The position numbers were made by a program, and so were the translations under genes. A stretch of 5,743 nucleotides of DNA from a virus, in IMG/VR virus record IMGVR_UViG_3300045988_005865; one strand, 5' to 3'. Of this stretch, positions 93 to 5,743 are shown one piece after another. The stretch's first letter is position 1. The number at the start of each line of letters is the position of its first letter. The notes below the pieces were generated by a model. It was not told where the DNA came from. It searched no databases and saw only the letters and a list, made by a program, of their open reading frames with translations.

Positions 93-147
93 ATAATCAA
101 GTCCGCAGAGTAGGAACATACGATACCAGAAAAGAAGGTTGACAAAA

Positions 148-537
148 GTGATTAAAAGCTATATCATGGACACAGACGCAAACGAAAAAGTAGGGCAACA
201 CTTTAAAGTACGAGAATTCGCTTGCAAAGACGGATCACAAGTAGTTTTTATAGATAGTTACCTAGTATCTATCCTAGACATCCTCAGAAACCAAATCGGA
301 AAGCCTGTAATCATCAACAGTGGATACCGGACACCGGAAAAGAATAAAGCGGTAGGCGGTGCAAAGTATTCATACCACATGCGAGGAATGGCAGCAGACA
401 TACGGGTTAATGGAATGACCGCAAAAGAAATTGCCAACAGACTGAATAAAATCATTCCGAATGAATGCGGCATCATCGTATATAGCACGTGGGTACACAT
501 CGACACACGCACCAAAAAATACAGAAAGGGGGTATAA
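148..537 (+). CDS. Zinc D-Ala-D-Ala carboxypeptidase-like peptidoglycan peptidase (Peptidase M15A / Peptidase_M15_3 type), a putative endolysin
   Basis: The ORF is open from 139 to 537. The family pattern is clear: SGYRTPEKNKAVGGAKYSYHMRGMAADI ... GIIVYSTWVHIDTR. This gives the H-x6-D ... H zinc ligand set (H at nt 376-378, D in AAD, H in VHID). The start is ambiguous. TTG 139 directly abuts the SD-like AGAAGG (133-138). GTG 148 lies 9 nt after that SD and is preferred here. ATG 166 has no SD. Confidence 0.85.
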   Translation: MIKSYIMDTDANEKVGQHFKVREFACKDGSQVVFIDSYLVSILDILRNQIGKPVIINSGYRTPEKNKAVGGAKYSYHMRGMAADIRVNGMTAKEIANRLNKIIPNECGIIVYSTWVHIDTRTKKYRKGV

Positions 538-1015: not shown

Positions 1016-1255
1016 ATGGAACATCTGTATTACGGAATTTGGGACGAAGTAGCAAAGTGCTATGCATGGGTAGGCGAAAGCAAGAACAACGCAACCTTTG
1101 CGCGAATGTGCAACGTAATGGCAAAGGATGAAAAAACCTTCATTGGACAGGCGCCGGGGGACTACGTAGGCTACAGGCTGGCAAAGTTCGATGACGAAAC
1201 CGGAGCCTTCAACAACGACAAGGAAAAAGCATGGGAGGGCAAGCCGCATGAATAA
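1016..1255 (+). CDS. Conserved small microvirus non-structural protein (VP5-like), 79 aa
   Basis: ATG 1016 lies 7 nt after AGAAAGGA (1001-1008). The pattern YYGIWDEVAKCY...KNNATFARMC...DEKTFIGQAPGDYVGYRLAKFDDETGAF resembles the small protein recurrent in gokushovirus genomes (Y.I.D.VA..Y ... A.R.F ... P.D..L..LG.FDD.TG.F). This is recalled from family knowledge and was not searched. Confidence 0.65.
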   Translation: MEHLYYGIWDEVAKCYAWVGESKNNATFARMCNVMAKDEKTFIGQAPGDYVGYRLAKFDDETGAFNNDKEKAWEGKPHE

Positions 1256-1646
1256 ACGATACGAAGAAGGGCGAAAGCCCTTCTTTTCTGAATCGGGCGA
1301 AAAAATGCGAAAGCAATACGTTTGGACGAAAGATGAAAAAGGGAAGGAAGTGTTACAGGAGACTGCACCAATCGACATCCAGCAAGAAATCGAAAGCTAT
1401 GCAGAAGAATGCGACATCAAAAACATCGTCCGAAAAGCAAGTTTCGACCCGCAGTTTCTGAAAAGTCTGTCAGAAGGAGCGCTAGAAGGAACAGAGGTGG
1501 ATATCACCGAATTTCCGCAAAACATTCATGAGTATCACCGCATGATTGCGACCGCACAGACAAACGCAATGAAACTTGAAGAACTGCAAAAAAAGGCAGC
1601 AGAAGAAGCAAAAGCAGAGCCTAAAGCAAAGGAGGAAGAAAAGTGA
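1248..1646 (+). CDS. VP3: Internal scaffolding protein VP3 (132 aa from ATG 1248)
   Basis: The motif ESYAEECDIKNIVRKA matches the gokushovirus VP3 signature (D/E)ECD(I/V)N.I(V/L). The C-terminus is acidic and lysine-rich. GGGAGGG (1233-1239) lies 8 nt before ATG 1248, and the start overlaps the upstream stop (ATGAATAA, 1248-1255). The track's 1191 start would add 19 aa with no SD. Confidence 0.8.
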   Translation: MNKRYEEGRKPFFSESGEKMRKQYVWTKDEKGKEVLQETAPIDIQQEIESYAEECDIKNIVRKASFDPQFLKSLSEGALEGTEVDITEFPQNIHEYHRMIATAQTNAMKLEELQKKAAEEAKAEPKAKEEEK

Positions 1647-3328
1647 ATCGAAACAATGAACGGCACTTCAATCAGATTCCAGAAATGAAAGCAAGCCGAA
1701 CACGATTCAACCGTGACCAAACTATTCTCACAACGTTTGATTCCGGCAAGCTGATTCCGTTTTATGTTGACGAGGTGTTACCGGGCGATACATTCAACGT
1801 AGATACGTCAGCAATCATCCGAATGACCACGCCGAAGTATCCGGTGATGGACGATGCATTCATTGACTTCTACTATTTCTACTGTCCAAACCGCATTTTA
1901 TGGGATGATTTCAAGCACTTTATGGGAGAAGTTGAAGAAAAGCCCTGGATGCCAACGAAAGAATACAGTGTACCACAAATCGAAATCAAAGGGTCGAATT
2001 CTAACCCTAAACCGTATGAAGGCTCAATACTGGATTACATGGGAATCCCAACGAAAATTAAAAACACTTTCAAAATAAACGCACTTCCAATCAGAGCGTA
2101 CACAATGATTTGGAACGAATTTTTCAGGGACGAAAATGTAGAAAATGCGGCAGTATGGAAAAACAACAGCGAAAATACAGAATATAACGATACAAAAGAT
2201 GAAGGTAACCAAGAAGGAAATCTGCAGAGAGCAATCATGGGAGGAAGATGCCTACCGGTAAACAAATTCCACGACTACTTCACAAGCTGTCTGCCTTATC
2301 CTCAGCGCGGGCCGGAAGTGGCACTGCCATTAGAAGGGAATGCAGCGGTCAATCTATACGACAACCAGCAGCTAACAGAAAAAACACCAACAAACGAAAA
2401 CATATGGCTCAACGGCAACGTAAGAGGGCAAGAAAGTACATTGCCAAGAATCGGAAACTTCCCAACAGAATACAACAAAGGGTACCCCGCACTAATTAAC
2501 GGCGCGTTAGAAGATGCGGGAACTAAAAAGAAAGATGCATTCTTAGGAGCAGACCTTAGCACAGTAACTGCCGTAACCATCAACGAATTAAGAAAAGCCG
2601 TAGCAGTACAGCAGTACTACGAGGCACTTGCAAGAGGTGGCAGCCGTTACAGGGAACAGGTACAGGCACTATGGGATGTAGTAATTTCCGACAAAACCGT
2701 ACAAATCCCGGAATACCTTGGCGGTGGCAGATACCACGTCAACATGAACCAAATCGTACAGACAAGCGGACAGCAGAACAACAATGACACACCCATTGGT
2801 GAAACGGGTGCAATGTCAGTAACGCCCATCAACGAAAGCTCTTTTACCAAATCTTTTGAAGAGCACGGATTTATCATTGGTGTGTGCTGTGTACGGCACA
2901 ACCATTCGTACCAACAGGGACTCGAACGTTTTTGGAGCAGAACAGACAGGCTGGACTACTATGTACCGCAATTCGCAAATCTGGGCGAACAGCCGGTAAA
3001 GAAAAAAGAAATCATGCTGACCGGCACAGAAAGCGACGAAGAGACGTTCGGCTATCAGGAAGCATGGGCGGACTACAGAATGAAACCAAATCGAGTATCC
3101 GGCCTCATGAGAAGCAACGCAACGGGAACGCTGGACTTCTGGCATTATGCCGACAACTATGCAAACGTACCGACACTGTCGCAAGAATGGATGGCAGAAG
3201 GAAAGGAAGAAATTGCACGCACGTTGATCGTGCAAAATGAGCCACAGTTTTTCGGCGCAATCCGCGTAACAAACAAAACCACAAGACGGATGCCGCTATA
3301 CAGCGTACCGGGCTTGTATAAATTGTAA
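1643..3328 (+). CDS. VP1: Major capsid protein VP1 (Microviridae F-type capsid protein), 561 aa
   Basis: Several hallmark blocks are present: RTRFNRDQTILTTFDSGKLIPFYVDEVLPGDTF, DYMGIP, INALPIRAYTMIWNEFFRDEN, KFHDYFTSCLPYPQRGPE, TINELRKAVAVQQYYEALARGGSRYREQV and IPEYLGGG. The GTG start at 1643 lies 7 nt after AAGGAGG (1629-1635) and overlaps the VP3 stop as GTGA. Confidence 0.95.
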   Translation: MNRNNERHFNQIPEMKASRTRFNRDQTILTTFDSGKLIPFYVDEVLPGDTFNVDTSAIIRMTTPKYPVMDDAFIDFYYFYCPNRILWDDFKHFMGEVEEKPWMPTKEYSVPQIEIKGSNSNPKPYEGSILDYMGIPTKIKNTFKINALPIRAYTMIWNEFFRDENVENAAVWKNNSENTEYNDTKDEGNQEGNLQRAIMGGRCLPVNKFHDYFTSCLPYPQRGPEVALPLEGNAAVNLYDNQQLTEKTPTNENIWLNGNVRGQESTLPRIGNFPTEYNKGYPALINGALEDAGTKKKDAFLGADLSTVTAVTINELRKAVAVQQYYEALARGGSRYREQVQALWDVVISDKTVQIPEYLGGGRYHVNMNQIVQTSGQQNNNDTPIGETGAMSVTPINESSFTKSFEEHGFIIGVCCVRHNHSYQQGLERFWSRTDRLDYYVPQFANLGEQPVKKKEIMLTGTESDEETFGYQEAWADYRMKPNRVSGLMRSNATGTLDFWHYADNYANVPTLSQEWMAEGKEEIARTLIVQNEPQFFGAIRVTNKTTRRMPLYSVPGLYKL

Positions 3329-3367: not shown

Positions 3368-4204
3368 ATGAGTGTATTATCAGGCCTTTTAACAGGTTTA
3401 AACGTAGCGGGAAACGTGGCAAATACGATCGGAACTGTTGCAGGAGCAGCTAAAGACGTAGCCGGAATATTCGGCGGCTGGGGTCAAACCGGCAACAGCA
3501 AAAGCCAGGGCGGAGCCGTAAGCCAAGGCGGCGGACACTCAGAGAGCGAAAGTTATTCGGGCACAAACGTACAACAGGTAAACGACTGGCTTAGACAGGC
3601 ATATGCATACCAAGGGCAAGAAGCTGCCATGCAAGGTAAATACAACAGTCAAAGCATGCTTAAACAGATGGGTTACAACACCTTACAAGCAATCATGCAA
3701 GGCGTATATAACCACATTGAAAACAGCGTAGCAATGAGCTACAACAGTGCAGAAGCACTAGCAAACCGTAAATGGCAAGAGCACATGAGCAATACAGCAT
3801 ATCAAAGAGCCGTTGAAGATATGAGAAAAGCTGGGCTTAATCCAATCTTAGCTTTTGCCAACGGCGGTGCAAGCACGCCAGGCGGCAGTGCAGGAACAAT
3901 CAGCGGTGCAAGTATGGGACTAGCAAGCAGCAGCGCACTAGGAATAAGTAGAAGCGGCGGTTTCGTACCGAACGCATACGAAAGCAATAGCTGGAGTAAA
4001 AGCGACTGGTACAACGCATCACAAAGTTGGCAACAGATGCTCAGTAGTACGCAAATGACGCCTTATGGATTAGCAAAGACTTTAACAAGCATCGGAAACG
4101 ATACTGGAAAAGCAATAGAAAAAGCAACAGAACCAGAAAGTAAAAAGCACAAAAGCAAAGCTGGAGTAACACACGGCGGCGGTGGAGGTGAAATCAAAAA
4201 GTGA
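3368..4204 (+). CDS. VP2: DNA pilot / minor capsid protein VP2, 278 aa
   Basis: The N-terminus is Gly/Ala-rich and hydrophobic (MSVLSGLLTGLNVAGNVANTIGTVAGAAKDVAGIFGG). The central motif WQEHMSNTAYQRAVEDMRKAGLNPILA is typical of microvirus VP2/H-class pilot proteins. The C-terminal half is Ser/Gly-rich. ATG 3368 is the first possible start because an in-frame TAA lies at 3365-3367. Confidence 0.85.
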   Translation: MSVLSGLLTGLNVAGNVANTIGTVAGAAKDVAGIFGGWGQTGNSKSQGGAVSQGGGHSESESYSGTNVQQVNDWLRQAYAYQGQEAAMQGKYNSQSMLKQMGYNTLQAIMQGVYNHIENSVAMSYNSAEALANRKWQEHMSNTAYQRAVEDMRKAGLNPILAFANGGASTPGGSAGTISGASMGLASSSALGISRSGGFVPNAYESNSWSKSDWYNASQSWQQMLSSTQMTPYGLAKTLTSIGNDTGKAIEKATEPESKKHKSKAGVTHGGGGGEIKK

Positions 4205-5220
4205 GTTGCTACAAGCCATTAATAAGGCTGTACAACCCGAACGATAAAAACATCAGCGGGAGGGTGTATTCACTCTCCCGCTTTTCTCAGTTAGCGGGAA
4301 AACAGCTCAAATATGAAGACCTGATGTACAGAAAAGATATCATGTTGATACCATGCGGGCAGTGTATCGGATGTAGAATCAGACAAAGAGAGGACTGGAC
4401 AACACGAATAGAATTAGAAGCACGAGACTACCCAAGAGAACAAGTTTGGTTTATAACATTAACTTATAATGATGACCACGTACCAGGCATGATAGTAAAC
4501 ACAGGTGAAATCATGCGAAAAGTACAATACGTCTGGAAGCCGGGAAAGAAGCGCCCTGAAAGCGTCCAAACGTTGCTATATACTGACGTTCAAAAATTCT
4601 TAAAACGTCTCAGAAAAGCTTATAGGGGCAAATTACGCTATTTTGCAGCGGGAGAATACGGAGAACAGACAGCAAGACCGCATTATCATATGATACTGTA
4701 TGGATGGGAACCAACAGACCTAGAGCACCTATACAAGATACAACACAACGGATACTTCACAAGTAAATGGCTAGCAGACGTATGGGGCATGGGTCAGATA
4801 CAAATAGCGCAAGCGGTACCGGAAACATATAGATATGTTGCGGGATACGTCACAAAAAAAATGTATGAGATAGACGGTCAGAAAGCAAACGTATACTACG
4901 AACTGGGACAACAAAAACCTTTTGCGTGCATGAGCCTAAAGCCGGGCTTAGGAGATAACTATTACCAAAAGCACAAAGAAGAAATCTGGAGACAAGGGTA
5001 TATCCAATGCACAAACGGCAAACGCGCACAAATTCCACGTTATTATGAAAAGAAGATGGAAGCAGAAAACCCACAAAGGTTGTGGAGAATTAAACAGAAC
5101 AGGCAAGCAGCAGTCATAGCAGAAAACCGACTAAAGTACGAAAATGCAGACTTTGCAGAACAGTGCAAGACGAAAGAGAGAGTGATAAAGAAACAGATGA
5201 AGAAAAAAGGGACACTATAA
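4201..5220 (+). CDS. VP4: Replication initiation protein VP4 (HUH rolling-circle endonuclease), 339 aa
   Basis: MSCYKPL... N-terminus, then the PCGQCIGCRIRQREDW cysteine cluster. RCR motif 1 is FITLTY (nt 4450-4467). Motif 2 is PHYHMILYG (HYH at nt 4681-4689). Motif 3 is YRYVAGYVTKK (nt 4828-4860), carrying the catalytic tyrosines. GTG 4201 overlaps the VP2 stop as GTGA, and GGAGG (4184-4188) lies 12 nt upstream. Confidence 0.93.
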   Translation: MSCYKPLIRLYNPNDKNISGRVYSLSRFSQLAGKQLKYEDLMYRKDIMLIPCGQCIGCRIRQREDWTTRIELEARDYPREQVWFITLTYNDDHVPGMIVNTGEIMRKVQYVWKPGKKRPESVQTLLYTDVQKFLKRLRKAYRGKLRYFAAGEYGEQTARPHYHMILYGWEPTDLEHLYKIQHNGYFTSKWLADVWGMGQIQIAQAVPETYRYVAGYVTKKMYEIDGQKANVYYELGQQKPFACMSLKPGLGDNYYQKHKEEIWRQGYIQCTNGKRAQIPRYYEKKMEAENPQRLWRIKQNRQAAVIAENRLKYENADFAEQCKTKERVIKKQMKKKGTL

Positions 5221-5240
5221 CAGTGTCATAGTGTCACCTG

Positions 5241-5274
5241 GCCCAGTACCTATCAAGTAAGGTACTGGGCTTTT
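5241..5274 (+). terminator. Intrinsic terminator-like stem-loop downstream of VP4
   Basis: GCCCAGTACCT (5241-5251) pairs with AGGTACTGGGC (5260-5270), giving an 11-bp perfect stem with the 8-nt loop ATCAAGTA, followed by TTTT (5271-5274). It lies 20 nt after the VP4 stop. Confidence 0.65.
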
Positions 5275-5293
5275 GTCGTCTAAGGACTCCATG

Positions 5294-5320
5294 TATCAGT
5301 CTATTCAGTCTATCAAGTAA
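5294..5320 (+). repeat. Three tandem degenerate 8-9 nt repeats. The last one belongs to an 11-nt exact copy of the terminator-loop sequence.
   Basis: TATCAGTC (5294-5301), TATTCAGTC (5302-5310), TATCAAGTA (5311-5319). CTATCAAGTAA occurs exactly at 5250-5260 (the loop of the 5241-5270 hairpin) and again at 5310-5320, exactly 60 nt apart. Confidence 0.8.
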
Positions 5321-5327
5321 TATAATC

Positions 5328-5381
5328 TATAACGCACGTGCGCACACGCGCGATAGCGCGCACGCGCGCACGCGCGCTATA
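5328..5381. repeat. GC-rich, purine-pyrimidine alternating imperfect palindrome (hairpin/cruciform-capable) bracketed by TATAAT boxes
   Basis: The arms TATAACGCACGTGCGC (5328-5343) and GCGCACGCGCGCTATA (5366-5381) are complementary at 14 of 16 positions. An inner hairpin pairs GCGCG (5348-5352) with CGCGC (5357-5361) around the loop ATAG. Positions 5332-5352 and 5356-5377 each show perfect R/Y alternation. TATAAT occurs at 5321-5326 and 5378-5383. Confidence 0.85.
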
Positions 5382-5415
5382 ATATTAACTTGTTGTAGGA
5401 GTAGTAGTAGAGGCA

Positions 5416-5589
5416 GTGGAAAAGTTGAAAAGTACTAAAATTTAACGCTAAAGCGTAAATAAAAAGCAAAAAATACTGTTGAAAGTTTTGTTGAAAACTT
5501 GTTGAAATGTTGAAAGTCCGTCAAAATGACGAAAACCTTTGTGCAACATTTTGTGGAAAACCTGTTGAAAGTGTTGAAAGTGTTGAAAA
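5416..5589 (+). repeat. Iteron-like array of ten same-orientation copies of (T/A)GT(T/G)GAAA
   Basis: TGTTGAAA is at 5477, 5489, 5500, 5508, 5563, 5572 and 5581 (start positions). AGTTGAAA is at 5423, TGTGGAAA at 5552 and AGTGGAAA at 5416. The last three TGTTGAAA units form a perfect 9-nt tandem (TGTTGAAAG TGTTGAAAG TGTTGAAAA, 5563-5589). GAAAACCT also occurs twice (5531-5538 and 5556-5563). Confidence 0.85.
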
Positions 5590-5658
5590 CGCGCACAGCG
5601 CTTACAATGAATGGATCAGCCGAGCTCCGCATGCGCTACGCACGGCAAGGCGCTAAAG

Positions 5659-5743
5659 CGCTTTCAAAACAAAGGAGCAAAACCGAGTTACTAATATATC
5701 AATTAAAATTCTAGAAAAGCTTGACTTTTTTCAAAAAAAAAAG
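5659..5743. repeat. Terminal redundancy, right copy, identical to 1-85
   Basis: Exact 85-nt match to the window start. See the feature at 1-85. Confidence 0.9.

Follow-up and report, generated by a model that had tools for sequence, protein, structure and literature searches.

A CG hairpin that pairs on the strand complementary to the genes, beside a predicted oriC-type DnaA module, in a clade of gut gokushoviruses

Background

What does an almost pure C/G palindrome do in the single long non-coding region of a small phage genome, and on which of the two DNA strands does it act? The question is raised by IMG/VR record IMGVR_UViG_3300045988_005865, a stretch of 5,743 nucleotides (the window in this text) that represents the full genome of a gokushovirus (Microviridae), every gene of which lies on the + strand. 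The palindrome, subsequently referred to as the CG hairpin, lies at 5328-5381, between the stop codon of VP4 (5218-5220) and the next gene. Gokushovirinae are the dominant microviruses of the gut and of many other habitats, and their cis-acting replication signals are unmapped in the literature that we searched. An earlier interpretation of the window from its letters alone (the sequence-only reading) had taken the palindrome for a folded signal on the packaged + strand, either an origin for synthesis of the complementary strand or a nick-site hairpin. We followed up this proposal by computational comparison with related genomes.

Results and discussion

The CG hairpin in the window

The description on which this proposal was built is accurate. 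TATAAT flanks the palindrome on both sides (5321-5326 and 5378-5383), 5333-5377 is 80% G+C (7 A, 2 T), and there are two blocks of perfect purine-pyrimidine (R/Y) alternation, at 5332-5352 (21 nt) and 5356-5377 (22 nt). The 8-nt unit CGCGCACG occurs at 5357-5364 and again at 5365-5372, and of the 16 positions at which the outer arms (5328-5343 and 5366-5381) face each other, 14 are paired. A nested 5-bp stem formed by 5348-5352 and 5357-5361 encloses an ATAG loop. TAGCGC and ATATTAACTTG are likewise found where they had been noted, at 5354-5359 and 5382-5392. An inverted-repeat search returned the hairpin as one 25-nt inverted repeat, 80% complementary, with a 4-nt loop, and the CG tract occurs only once in the genome.

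The stem of the window consists of 20 Watson-Crick pairs and 5 mismatches. All five mismatches are A.C on the + strand and G.T on the - strand, so that the stem runs uninterrupted on the latter. A very stable single-strand hairpin, as had been predicted, is indeed the top-ranked 70-nt local fold of the genome on both strands, with -20.2 kcal/mol for the coding and -27.2 kcal/mol for the non-coding strand (70-nt sliding fold; genome mean about -5.6, standard deviation about 3.2). The z-scores against dinucleotide shuffles are -2.6 for the + strand and -5.2 for the - strand. An AT-rich outer stem (Table 1) lengthens the fold from 54 to 79 nt.

Conservation and dyad symmetry

Relatives were collected by scanning IMG/VR for ACTTGTTGTAGnnGTAGTAGTAG, which gave at least 120 gokushovirus contigs among the matches listed. 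Three matches (L042, L085 and L088) were discarded as chance hits in low-complexity coding DNA. Our tract survey covers 132 such genomes, while the statistics on the neighboring DnaA module refer to 118 unique modules.

At least 92 of the 132 genomes carry the tract; the figure is a lower bound, since the filter (a GC-rich alternating tract of at least 28 nt) missed L038, L057, L061, L063 and L091. Exactly one tract was found in 90 genomes, and the two scored with two are contigs with duplicated ends. In every carrier genome the tract is located in non-coding DNA. It is of the CA type on the coding strand in every genome, including 28 with an inverted DnaA module, and it is kept as a single copy across lineages that share only about 37-47% VP4 identity. 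The tract is truly absent from most of class B (a group with VP4 identity of about 37%, treated in the following sections), from one lineage whose VP4 is about 47% identical, and from two genomes resembling deletion derivatives, with VP4 identity of about 90%. Conservation in close relatives, on which the sequence-only reading was made to depend, is seen in the carriers and broken by these last two genomes. With about a quarter of the relatives lacking it, the CG hairpin is, judging from this survey, dispensable.

The 82 unique tract sequences follow one design, two arms of CG/CA steps around a loop of 3-5 nt. The loops include AAA (27 tracts), TAAT (11), AAG (10) and TAGA (8), and also ATAG, GTAG and TAAA. 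As (CG)n is self-complementary and composition alone yields many pairs, we used thinning and shuffling as controls. After the tracts had been thinned to 23 lineages differing at more than 3 of 32 inner positions, 275 of the 368 pairs in the inner 16 bp were Watson-Crick in the true register. Partner shuffles gave 196 +/- 10 (maximum 237 in 1000), and register shifts of 2 or 4, which retain the alternation, gave 191-221. Because the true register lies far above both controls, the hairpin is, at the level of these alignments, selected beyond its composition. Changes that preserve the stem, which the sequence-only reading had suggested looking for, do occur in related genomes: 9 of 18 pairs have changed on both sides with pairing kept in the non-coding polarity.

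In several homologues (L008, L011, L032 and L003) one arm is an exact direct repeat of the other, and both change in concert between genomes; the tract of L003 consists wholly of the tandem repeat (CGCGCGCA)4. Every arm of these tracts is itself a wobble palindrome, and an alternative fold into two small hairpins is possible.

Polarity of base pairing

The most informative feature of the tracts is the kind of mismatch that they tolerate. Read in the coding polarity, the 82 unique sequences contain 1119 G-C and 222 A-T pairs, 326 A.C, 7 G.T and 18 other combinations. T stands opposite A in 222 of 229 cases (97%), where independence would give about 154 T.G. The thinned set shows the same in the coding polarity: A.C, with 92 cases, is at the random level (about 97-115), and G.T is absent, versus 18-24 expected. 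In the non-coding polarity, all of the 504 aligned pairs (ungapped alignments) are standard, compared with 75.1% paired in the coding polarity. Shuffled controls in the non-coding polarity gave 95.0 +/- 0.5%, with none of 500 reaching 100.0%, and slides of +/-2 gave 88.5% and 93.5%.

Could this asymmetry simply reflect the A-richness of these genomes? Mutation bias alone, calculated from the rates at four-fold sites, would favor A.C over G.T by about 3-5:1, whereas the observed ratio is 47:1 or more and T faces almost only A. Genome-wide A-richness was therefore rejected as the full cause. As a control of the method, we scored the mRNA terminator downstream of VP1 (a GC stem with a T-run), and it displays the opposite pattern, with three G.T and no A.C in the coding polarity.

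In these alignments the ordinary wobble rule, under which G.T is tolerated and A.C forbidden, is obeyed on the non-coding strand only. If the pairing record is taken at face value, the hairpin must act as a single strand of non-coding sequence and not as a duplex, since cruciform, Z-DNA and duplex-binding models are strand-symmetric and unable to give a pairing rule for one strand. We infer that this single strand is DNA rather than RNA. The proposal of a single-strand signal thus survives in part: there is a real, conserved and strand-specific hairpin in the replication-control region, but on the strand complementary to the genes and not on the assumed + strand. The suggestion of a Z-DNA-prone tract fails as a sole account, as duplex-level models provide no strand-asymmetric pairing rule.

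The VP4-proximal hairpin and a candidate nick site

A second hairpin lies close to the end of VP4 (Table 1). In relatives its stems covary and its loop is conserved, with 693 Watson-Crick pairs, 14 A.C and 1 G.T in the coding polarity; its wobble polarity is the same as that of the CG hairpin and opposite to that of the VP1 terminator. This hairpin always accompanies VP4, the rolling-circle Rep, and the loop is conserved together with its cognate Rep. In class A genomes the loop shows CTTGATAG on the - strand, containing CTTGATA, the nick heptamer of phiX174 and of the pC194 family (CTTG/ATA). The heptamer is present twice in the region, at 5251-5257 and 5311-5317, on the - strand only. Class B has an equivalent hairpin just before VP4, in the same orientation relative to the genes, with the loop ...CAAG(T/G)AAG and GGTGTCA ahead. 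On this sequence evidence, the loop of the VP4-proximal hairpin is a better candidate for the nick site than either the CG hairpin or ATATTAACTTG. A terminator scan also reports 5240-5271 on the + strand, and the hairpin may serve as the VP4 terminator as well.

Several repeats surround the two hairpins. The inverted repeat GACACTATAACA / TGTCATAGTGTC at 5211-5235 spans the VP4 stop and scores as a - strand terminator (5235-5211) with the T-run CCTTTTTTCT; this T-run belongs to the coding sequence of VP4, and relatives do not conserve it. Class A and class B both have a GGTGTCA-like motif ahead of the VP4-proximal hairpin; in the window it lies beside the inverted repeat. Between the two hairpins, the 9-mer TCAGTCTAT occurs twice in perfect tandem (5296-5313), and CTAT/GATAG pentamers recur across 5300-5381, including the loop of the CG hairpin (GATAG). 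We also considered SpV4 as a comparator for the polarity of the nick motif. It has AACTTGATAAG on the coding strand, but within an open reading frame (ORF) far from the Rep gene; the comparison is weak and was not used.

Strand composition and substitution spectrum

Single-stranded DNA (ssDNA) phages normally over-use U-ending codons, owing to C>T damage on the virion strand, which is also the coding strand (PMC4032129). The window is the mirror image of this. At four-fold sites of its coding strand (VP1, VP2, VP4 and smaller ORFs) the frequency of A is 0.49 and that of T 0.13, compared with T frequencies of 0.65 in SpV4 and 0.51 in Chp2. The AT skew of the coding strand ranges from +0.25 to +0.39 in all 118 genomes of the clade, whatever the direction of the DnaA module. 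We then polarized substitutions at four-fold sites, using 32 sister pairs with outgroups. Expressed per 100 sites in the non-coding polarity, C>T amounts to 10.7 vs 3.7, G>T to 3.3 vs 0.7 and A>T to 3.2 vs 1.2, an elevation of 3-5 fold. An 'everything to T' spectrum of this kind is as expected of a damaged single strand.

Four independent observations thus concern the same strand: the wobble polarity of the CG hairpin, that of the VP4-proximal hairpin, the occurrence of CTTGATAG, and the composition together with the substitution spectrum. From these we infer that the non-coding strand is the one that is displaced or packaged.

An oriC-type DnaA module next to the hairpin

The basal unwinding system of bacterial oriC consists of DnaA boxes (TTWTNCACA), a GC-rich spacer of about 4 bp, DnaA-trios (3'-GAT-5') and an AT-rich unwinding element (PMC8287927, PMC7561715, PMC8235120); the polarity from box to trio was deduced from the same three papers. 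The segment 3' of the CG hairpin is laid out in this manner, with an AT-rich stretch, trios, a 4-nt G-rich spacer, (A/T)GTGGAAAA and then further boxes in the same orientation. The bases immediately 3' of the palindrome, 5377-5410, are the most widely conserved part of the region according to BLAST. For a trio element we looked for at least three NAN trios within 16 bp of a box with at most two mismatches, on the correct side and with a GC-rich spacer of about 4 bp, and found five trios, AGGC and AGTGGAAAA in the window. An AT-rich element distal to the trios is present in the window and, on average, in the modules, where the 12 nt 5' of ACTTG have a mean A+T content of 94% (118 modules).

The trio motif served as search key, and its presence in all 118 modules is therefore by construction. 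Independent of the key are the enriched array of same-orientation boxes, seen in all of them, and the A+T content of the upstream flank. In 63 of the 118 modules the last TAG is followed, at a distance of exactly 4 nt, by a box with no more than one mismatch, and 36 of these boxes are perfect TGTGGAAAA. The following 230 nt contain on average 5.0 boxes of the same orientation (at most one mismatch), compared with 0.58 for the opposite orientation and a background of 0.26. The window itself has five boxes of this quality, clustered on one strand at 5415-5589. This local same-strand cluster alone is enriched; across the window genome as a whole DnaA boxes are not (14 found vs 13.9 expected).

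These similarities suggest that 5378-5590 is an oriC-type module, for which binding of DnaA is predicted. Order, polarity and spacing agree with bacterial oriC, and the reverse complement of the C. difficile trio, TCATAGTAGTAATAGTAGTAGGTG, is closely similar. Unlike bacterial oriC, the module belongs to an ssDNA phage of 5.7 kb with rolling-circle replication, is found pointing either way with respect to the genes, and has mostly boxes of the one-mismatch form TTTTCAACA. Our literature search found no paper mentioning both 'DnaA box' and 'Microviridae'.

In three genomes whose VP4 is 91-93% identical to that of the window (L021, L069 and L103), the whole module of about 200 bp is exactly inverted; one breakpoint coincides with the 3' edge of the CG hairpin, and the other immediately precedes CGCGCACAGCGC. 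In class B, 25 genomes (for example L023, L050 and L109) have the module inverted and relocated upstream of VP4. The coding-strand AT skew of these 28 relatives stays at +0.34 to +0.39. This bears on the resemblance to the phiX174 origin that had been seen in ATATTAACTTG. The contiguous viral-strand origin CAACTTG/ATATTAATAAC is not present, only AACTTG (5387-5392) and ATATTAA (5382-5388) in permuted order, and ATATTAACTTG turns out to be the AT-rich edge of the DnaA module. As it is part of a unit that inverts while the strand asymmetry stays unchanged, it is unlikely to be the VP4 nick site. We also considered whether the hairpin folds during unwinding, on the strand left free across from the DnaA-trios, and rejected this because its polarity follows the genes, not the module.

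The conserved GC-rich block 3' of the module (5586-5680) keeps its orientation relative to the genes in L021, L069 and L103. It includes a GCGCTAAAGCGC mini-hairpin at 5650-5661, and a similar sequence, CGCTAAAGCG, is found at 5446-5455.

A possible single-strand origin on the non-coding strand

What could be the function of a hairpin with these properties? The best-fitting one among those we considered, which we put forward tentatively, is that of a start signal for the second strand, carried by the strand complementary to the genes and similar to the single-strand origins (ssos) of rolling-circle plasmids. The ssos are orientation-specific on the displaced strand, flexible in position and dispensable (PMC5703833, PMC4595007). 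Those of Firmicutes (ssoA, ssoU, ssoT, ssoW) are imperfect palindromes that are active as a single strand only and, as a plasmid feature, form exchangeable cassettes at recombination junctions (PMC5703833, PMC4595007). The sso-like reading rests on the same combination of traits in the CG hairpin: it appears to function only as a single strand, is locked in orientation, present in a single copy, placed flexibly, located at cassette junctions and absent from some genomes. A priming role of the sso type had already been part of the sequence-only reading; the function is retained here, but neither the strand nor the ssoA motif.

The differences from known ssos are considerable. The tract measures 55-80 nt against about 160 nt in Firmicutes ssos, its stem is purely alternating CG/CA, and it belongs to a virus, not a plasmid. 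The ssoA palindrome has about 130-160 nt and a conserved RSB, compared with 54 nt for the CG hairpin or 79 nt with the outer stem. The orientation dependence of ssoA has a counterpart at the sequence level, in that the tract is of the CA type on the coding strand everywhere and pairs at 100% in one polarity only. Membership in the ssoA family was rejected, because the CS-6 element TAGCG(T/A) is not conserved in the loop and the functional polarity would read GCGCTATCGC in the window. The TAGCGC to which the sequence-only reading had drawn attention is restricted to the subtype with ATAG or GTAG loops, the other loops being AAA, AAG, TAAT, TAGA and TAAA.

A possible course of events is the following. 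Rolling-circle replication would displace the non-coding strand, and encapsidation of that strand would follow. On the displaced strand, the tract would fold into a 25-bp G-C/G.T hairpin resistant to melting by single-stranded DNA-binding protein (SSB), which could mark the start of the second strand for host enzymes such as RNA polymerase, primase or a PriA-type primosome. The CG hairpin would then be an accessory cis element between the VP4-proximal hairpin with its CTTGATAG loop and the module of DnaA boxes, trios and AT-rich DNA.

Comparable elements are the PriA site of phiX174, the primase hairpins of G4 and the double hairpin of the M13 ori(-), all of them SSB-resistant intergenic hairpins of packaged ssDNA (see PMC9865509), for which the CG hairpin as a proposed second-strand start would be a counterpart. 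It differs from the complementary-strand origins of coliphages in having no sequence similarity to them, in being a single alternating CG/CA hairpin and in apparently being read on the strand complementary to the genes. With the 30-bp origin of phiX174 and the double-strand origins (dso) of the pC194 family the region shares an HUH Rep (VP4) and the heptamer CTTGATA; unlike there, the heptamer lies on the non-coding strand and outside the CG hairpin. Two alternating runs of 21-22 nt rich in CG/CA and a near-perfect dyad symmetry are typical of Z-DNA or cruciform tracts; unlike in such tracts, conservation obeys a single-strand wobble rule in one polarity. An intrinsic terminator was rejected: the terminator scan omits the CG hairpin, and the flanks, CTATAATATT (+) and TTATAGATTA (-), have no direct T/U run. 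A search of all Rfam families on both strands gave no match. Searches of the literature on origins, hairpins and intergenic elements of gokushoviruses yielded only generic hairpin predictions in other microvirus clades (PMC9865509) and work on XerCD/dif (PMC7062461), neither of which covers the CG hairpin. A by-eye comparison with dif sequences showed weak, AT-rich resemblance to a dif-like site.

Alternative explanations

The strand asymmetry also bears on two explanations that place the hairpin elsewhere than on a non-coding single strand. One is a duplex-level accessory of the DnaA unwinding module, a cruciform- or Z-prone GC block that focuses or limits AT-rich melting. Proximity speaks for it, as 6-25 nt separate the tract from the AT-rich edge in most genomes of class A, and GC-rich flanks are reported to boost the melting of neighboring AT-rich DNA (PMC8235120). 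The strict R/Y alternation is conserved, too, and genomes with an inverted module have another GC-rich block (GCGCTGTGCGCG) against the AT-rich edge. Nevertheless we regard this role as unlikely: being strand-symmetric, it does not account for A.C 326 vs G.T 7 or for 504 of 504 standard pairs in one polarity. Moreover, the tract holds its orientation and place when the module inverts and then faces the DnaA-box end, its distance from the module reaches 47-78 nt and, in other lineages, about 200 nt, and it is missing from about a quarter of the genomes. Less probable still is the arrangement originally proposed, an sso on the packaged coding strand in which A.C represents tolerated bubbles or mutational load. 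It would preserve the textbook polarity of Microviridae and agree with G>C at coding-strand four-fold sites; the + strand hairpin, at -20.2 kcal/mol, is still the genome's most stable fold, and mismatched bubbles are known in ssDNA promoters and ssos. However, the mild T.G is nearly forbidden (0-7 cases) and the disruptive A.C is at the random level (92 vs about 97-115), which is the opposite of what selection for + strand stability would leave; the mRNA terminator shows the reverse pattern, and composition and substitution spectrum mirror those of SpV4 and Chp2.

An antisense RNA, regulatory or serving as a primer, would account well for a strict wobble-tolerant pattern, which is typical of RNA, where G.U is as acceptable as A-U, and the terminator-like hairpin with T-run at 5235-5211 on the - strand lies downstream in the antisense sense. 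We consider it improbable, given that this T-run is unconserved VP4 coding sequence, that a sigma-70 promoter scan of 5100-5743 was empty on both strands, lending support neither to a promoter mimic nor to an antisense promoter (the real downstream promoter is cut by the window end), and that Rfam contains no matching family. To the right of the tract there is a DnaA module in either orientation, so no antisense promoter context is conserved. The repetitive nature of the tract raises another explanation, a functionless, hypermutable CG-repeat recombination hotspot kept by slippage or template switching that marks the junctions of module exchange and inversion. The left inversion breakpoint is indeed the 3' edge of the tract and the right one another CGCGCAC motif, class A and class B have the same tract and flank next to unrelated neighbors, in several lineages one arm is an exact direct repeat of the other (up to the tandem repeat of L003), and the tract is dispensable. 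Slippage, however, yields neither a central loop nor 100% pairing in one polarity nor T exclusively opposite A, and there is one copy per genome across lineages with VP4 only about 37-47% identical. The tract is also dense in palindromic 4-6-bp motifs of the type II restriction type, and a neutral tract of this kind would be expected to be lost from a phage; we give the hotspot a similarly low probability. Lowest of all we rate the idea that the CG hairpin is itself the nick or termination hairpin of VP4. HUH Reps often nick in hairpin loops, the loop region of the window reads GATAG, and a copy of CTTGATAG is found at the 3' base of the extended hairpin (- strand, 5310-5317). Against this, the loops vary (ATAG, AAA, AAG, TAAA) among genomes with VP4 more than 90% identical, close relatives carry a mutated second copy of CTTGATAG (TATCAAA in L001 and L017), genomes without the hairpin exist, and the loop of the VP4-proximal hairpin is far better conserved and always found with VP4.

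A number of points weigh against our preferred reading, an sso-like hairpin on a displaced or packaged non-coding strand. To our knowledge, every microvirus of known polarity packages the coding strand. At four-fold sites there is more G than C on the coding strand, which is a poor fit to simple cytosine deamination of the other strand, and codon-usage selection for A-ending codons may be an alternative source of the skew. G.T is only moderately tolerated in DNA, and so strict a wobble pattern is more typical of RNA. No transversional covariation accompanies the conserved R/Y alternation, and one arm is often an exact direct repeat of the other (L008, L011, L032), which points to an extra constraint or to slippage that our model leaves unexplained. 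Class B has the tract on the opposite side of the VP4-proximal hairpin, so the order 'sso upstream of dso' is not general. We identified no priming signal; of the ssoA elements, the hallmark CS-6 proved unconserved, and no search was aimed at RSB.

The wider picture is somewhat less probable than the sso-like role of the hairpin: a large clade of gut gokushoviruses may be 'negative-sense', that is, may displace and encapsidate the strand complementary to the mRNA. VP4 would nick CTTG/ATAG in the VP4-proximal loop, the CG/TG hairpin would be the second-strand origin, and the replicative form would carry a captured oriC-type module in either orientation. As far as our literature search found, both antisense packaging and an oriC-type DnaA module are undescribed for Microviridae.

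Genome organization and host

The first 85 nt of the window are identical to 5659-5743, an assembly overlap of a circular genome with a true length of 5658 nt. The nearest GenBank records are gokushoviruses of human and pig gut (identity 84-85%). When genome contigs were scanned for the core motif, a single genuine microvirus contig came up, binned with Bacteroides sp. CAG:545, and another three matches were due to chance in low-complexity coding DNA; the scan is uninformative on the host. A sigma-70/sigma-A-type promoter (TTGACT-N18-TAAAAT) is found at 63-92, ahead of the peptidase gene, and TTGACT again at 5721-5726; its counterpart in relatives is TTGAAA-N17-TGaTATAAT. The canonical promoters and strong Shine-Dalgarno sites suggest a host such as a Firmicute rather than Bacteroides, and with sigma-A-type promoters and such Shine-Dalgarno sites the host is probably not enterobacterial. 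The features of the window are listed in Table 1.

Table 1. Genes and sequence features of the window
Feature	Position	Strand	Remarks
M15 peptidase	139-537	+	
Chp2-type scaffold protein	1191-1646	+	
VP1, major capsid protein	1643-3328	+	Pfam Phage_F
VP2	3368-4204	+	
VP4, rolling-circle Rep (HUH)	4201-5220	+	Pfam REP_ORF2-G2P
VP4-proximal hairpin	5240-5271	-	Stem 5241-5251 / 5260-5270; loop (CT)ATCAAGTA on +, TTACTTGATAG on -; followed by TTTTG on +
Sequence CCTTACTTGATAGG	5248-5261 region	-	
Sequence ATTACTTGATAG	5309-5320 region	-	
Sequence TTAACTTGTTGTAG		+	
Second CTATCAAGTAA copy, direct repeat	5310-5320		60 nt downstream of the copy in the VP4-proximal hairpin, at the base of the extended CG hairpin; reads TTACTTGATAG on -; only partly conserved in relatives
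Left half of AT-rich outer stem, CAAGTAATATAAT	5314-5326	-	Predicted fold, pairs with 5379-5392; overlaps second CTATCAAGTAA copy
CG/CA quasi-palindrome (CG hairpin)	5328-5381	-	Arms 5328-5352 and 5357-5381; loop 5353-5356 (ATAG on +, CTAT on -)
AT-rich stretch TATAATATTAAC, then TTG TTG	5378-5395	+	TATAATATTAAC at 5378-5389; resembles DNA-unwinding element
Right half of AT-rich outer stem, ATAATATTAACTTG	5379-5392	-	Predicted fold; same bases form the AT-rich edge of the DnaA module
DnaA-trio-like repeats TAG GAG TAG TAG TAG	5396-5410	+	5'-TAG-3' = 3'-GAT-5'; exact in at least 120 IMG/VR contigs among the matches listed
Spacer AGGC (4 nt, G-rich) and DnaA-box-like AGTGGAAAA	5411-5423	+	One mismatch to TGTGNAWAA, the reverse complement of TTWTNCACA
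About 10 same-orientation repeats, GTTGAAA(A) / TGTGGAAAA	5424-5589	+	Degenerate to perfect DnaA boxes; perfect box 5552-5560
CGCGCACAGCGC	5586-5597	.	Right breakpoint of the segment (about 5378-5585) inverted in L021, L069, L103

Conclusions

One region of 380 nt contains three concrete elements: a Rep-linked hairpin displaying the canonical nick motif, an oriC-like DnaA module and, between them, the strand-specific GC hairpin. The argument made here is drawn purely from sequence and joins replication signals to an ssDNA-type mutation signature on the antisense strand. Should the reading of the antisense strand be wrong, the wobble asymmetry would still need a cause, for example an antisense RNA. 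The hairpin as such is a variation on the theme of ssos and hairpin origins, while possible antisense packaging together with an oriC-like module in a microvirus is the more novel claim. If true, it would constitute a large-clade exception to the rule that Microviridae are positive-sense, and strand-aware virome methods and mutation models would need adjusting. It would also mean that a small rolling-circle phage recruits the chromosomal initiator of its host.

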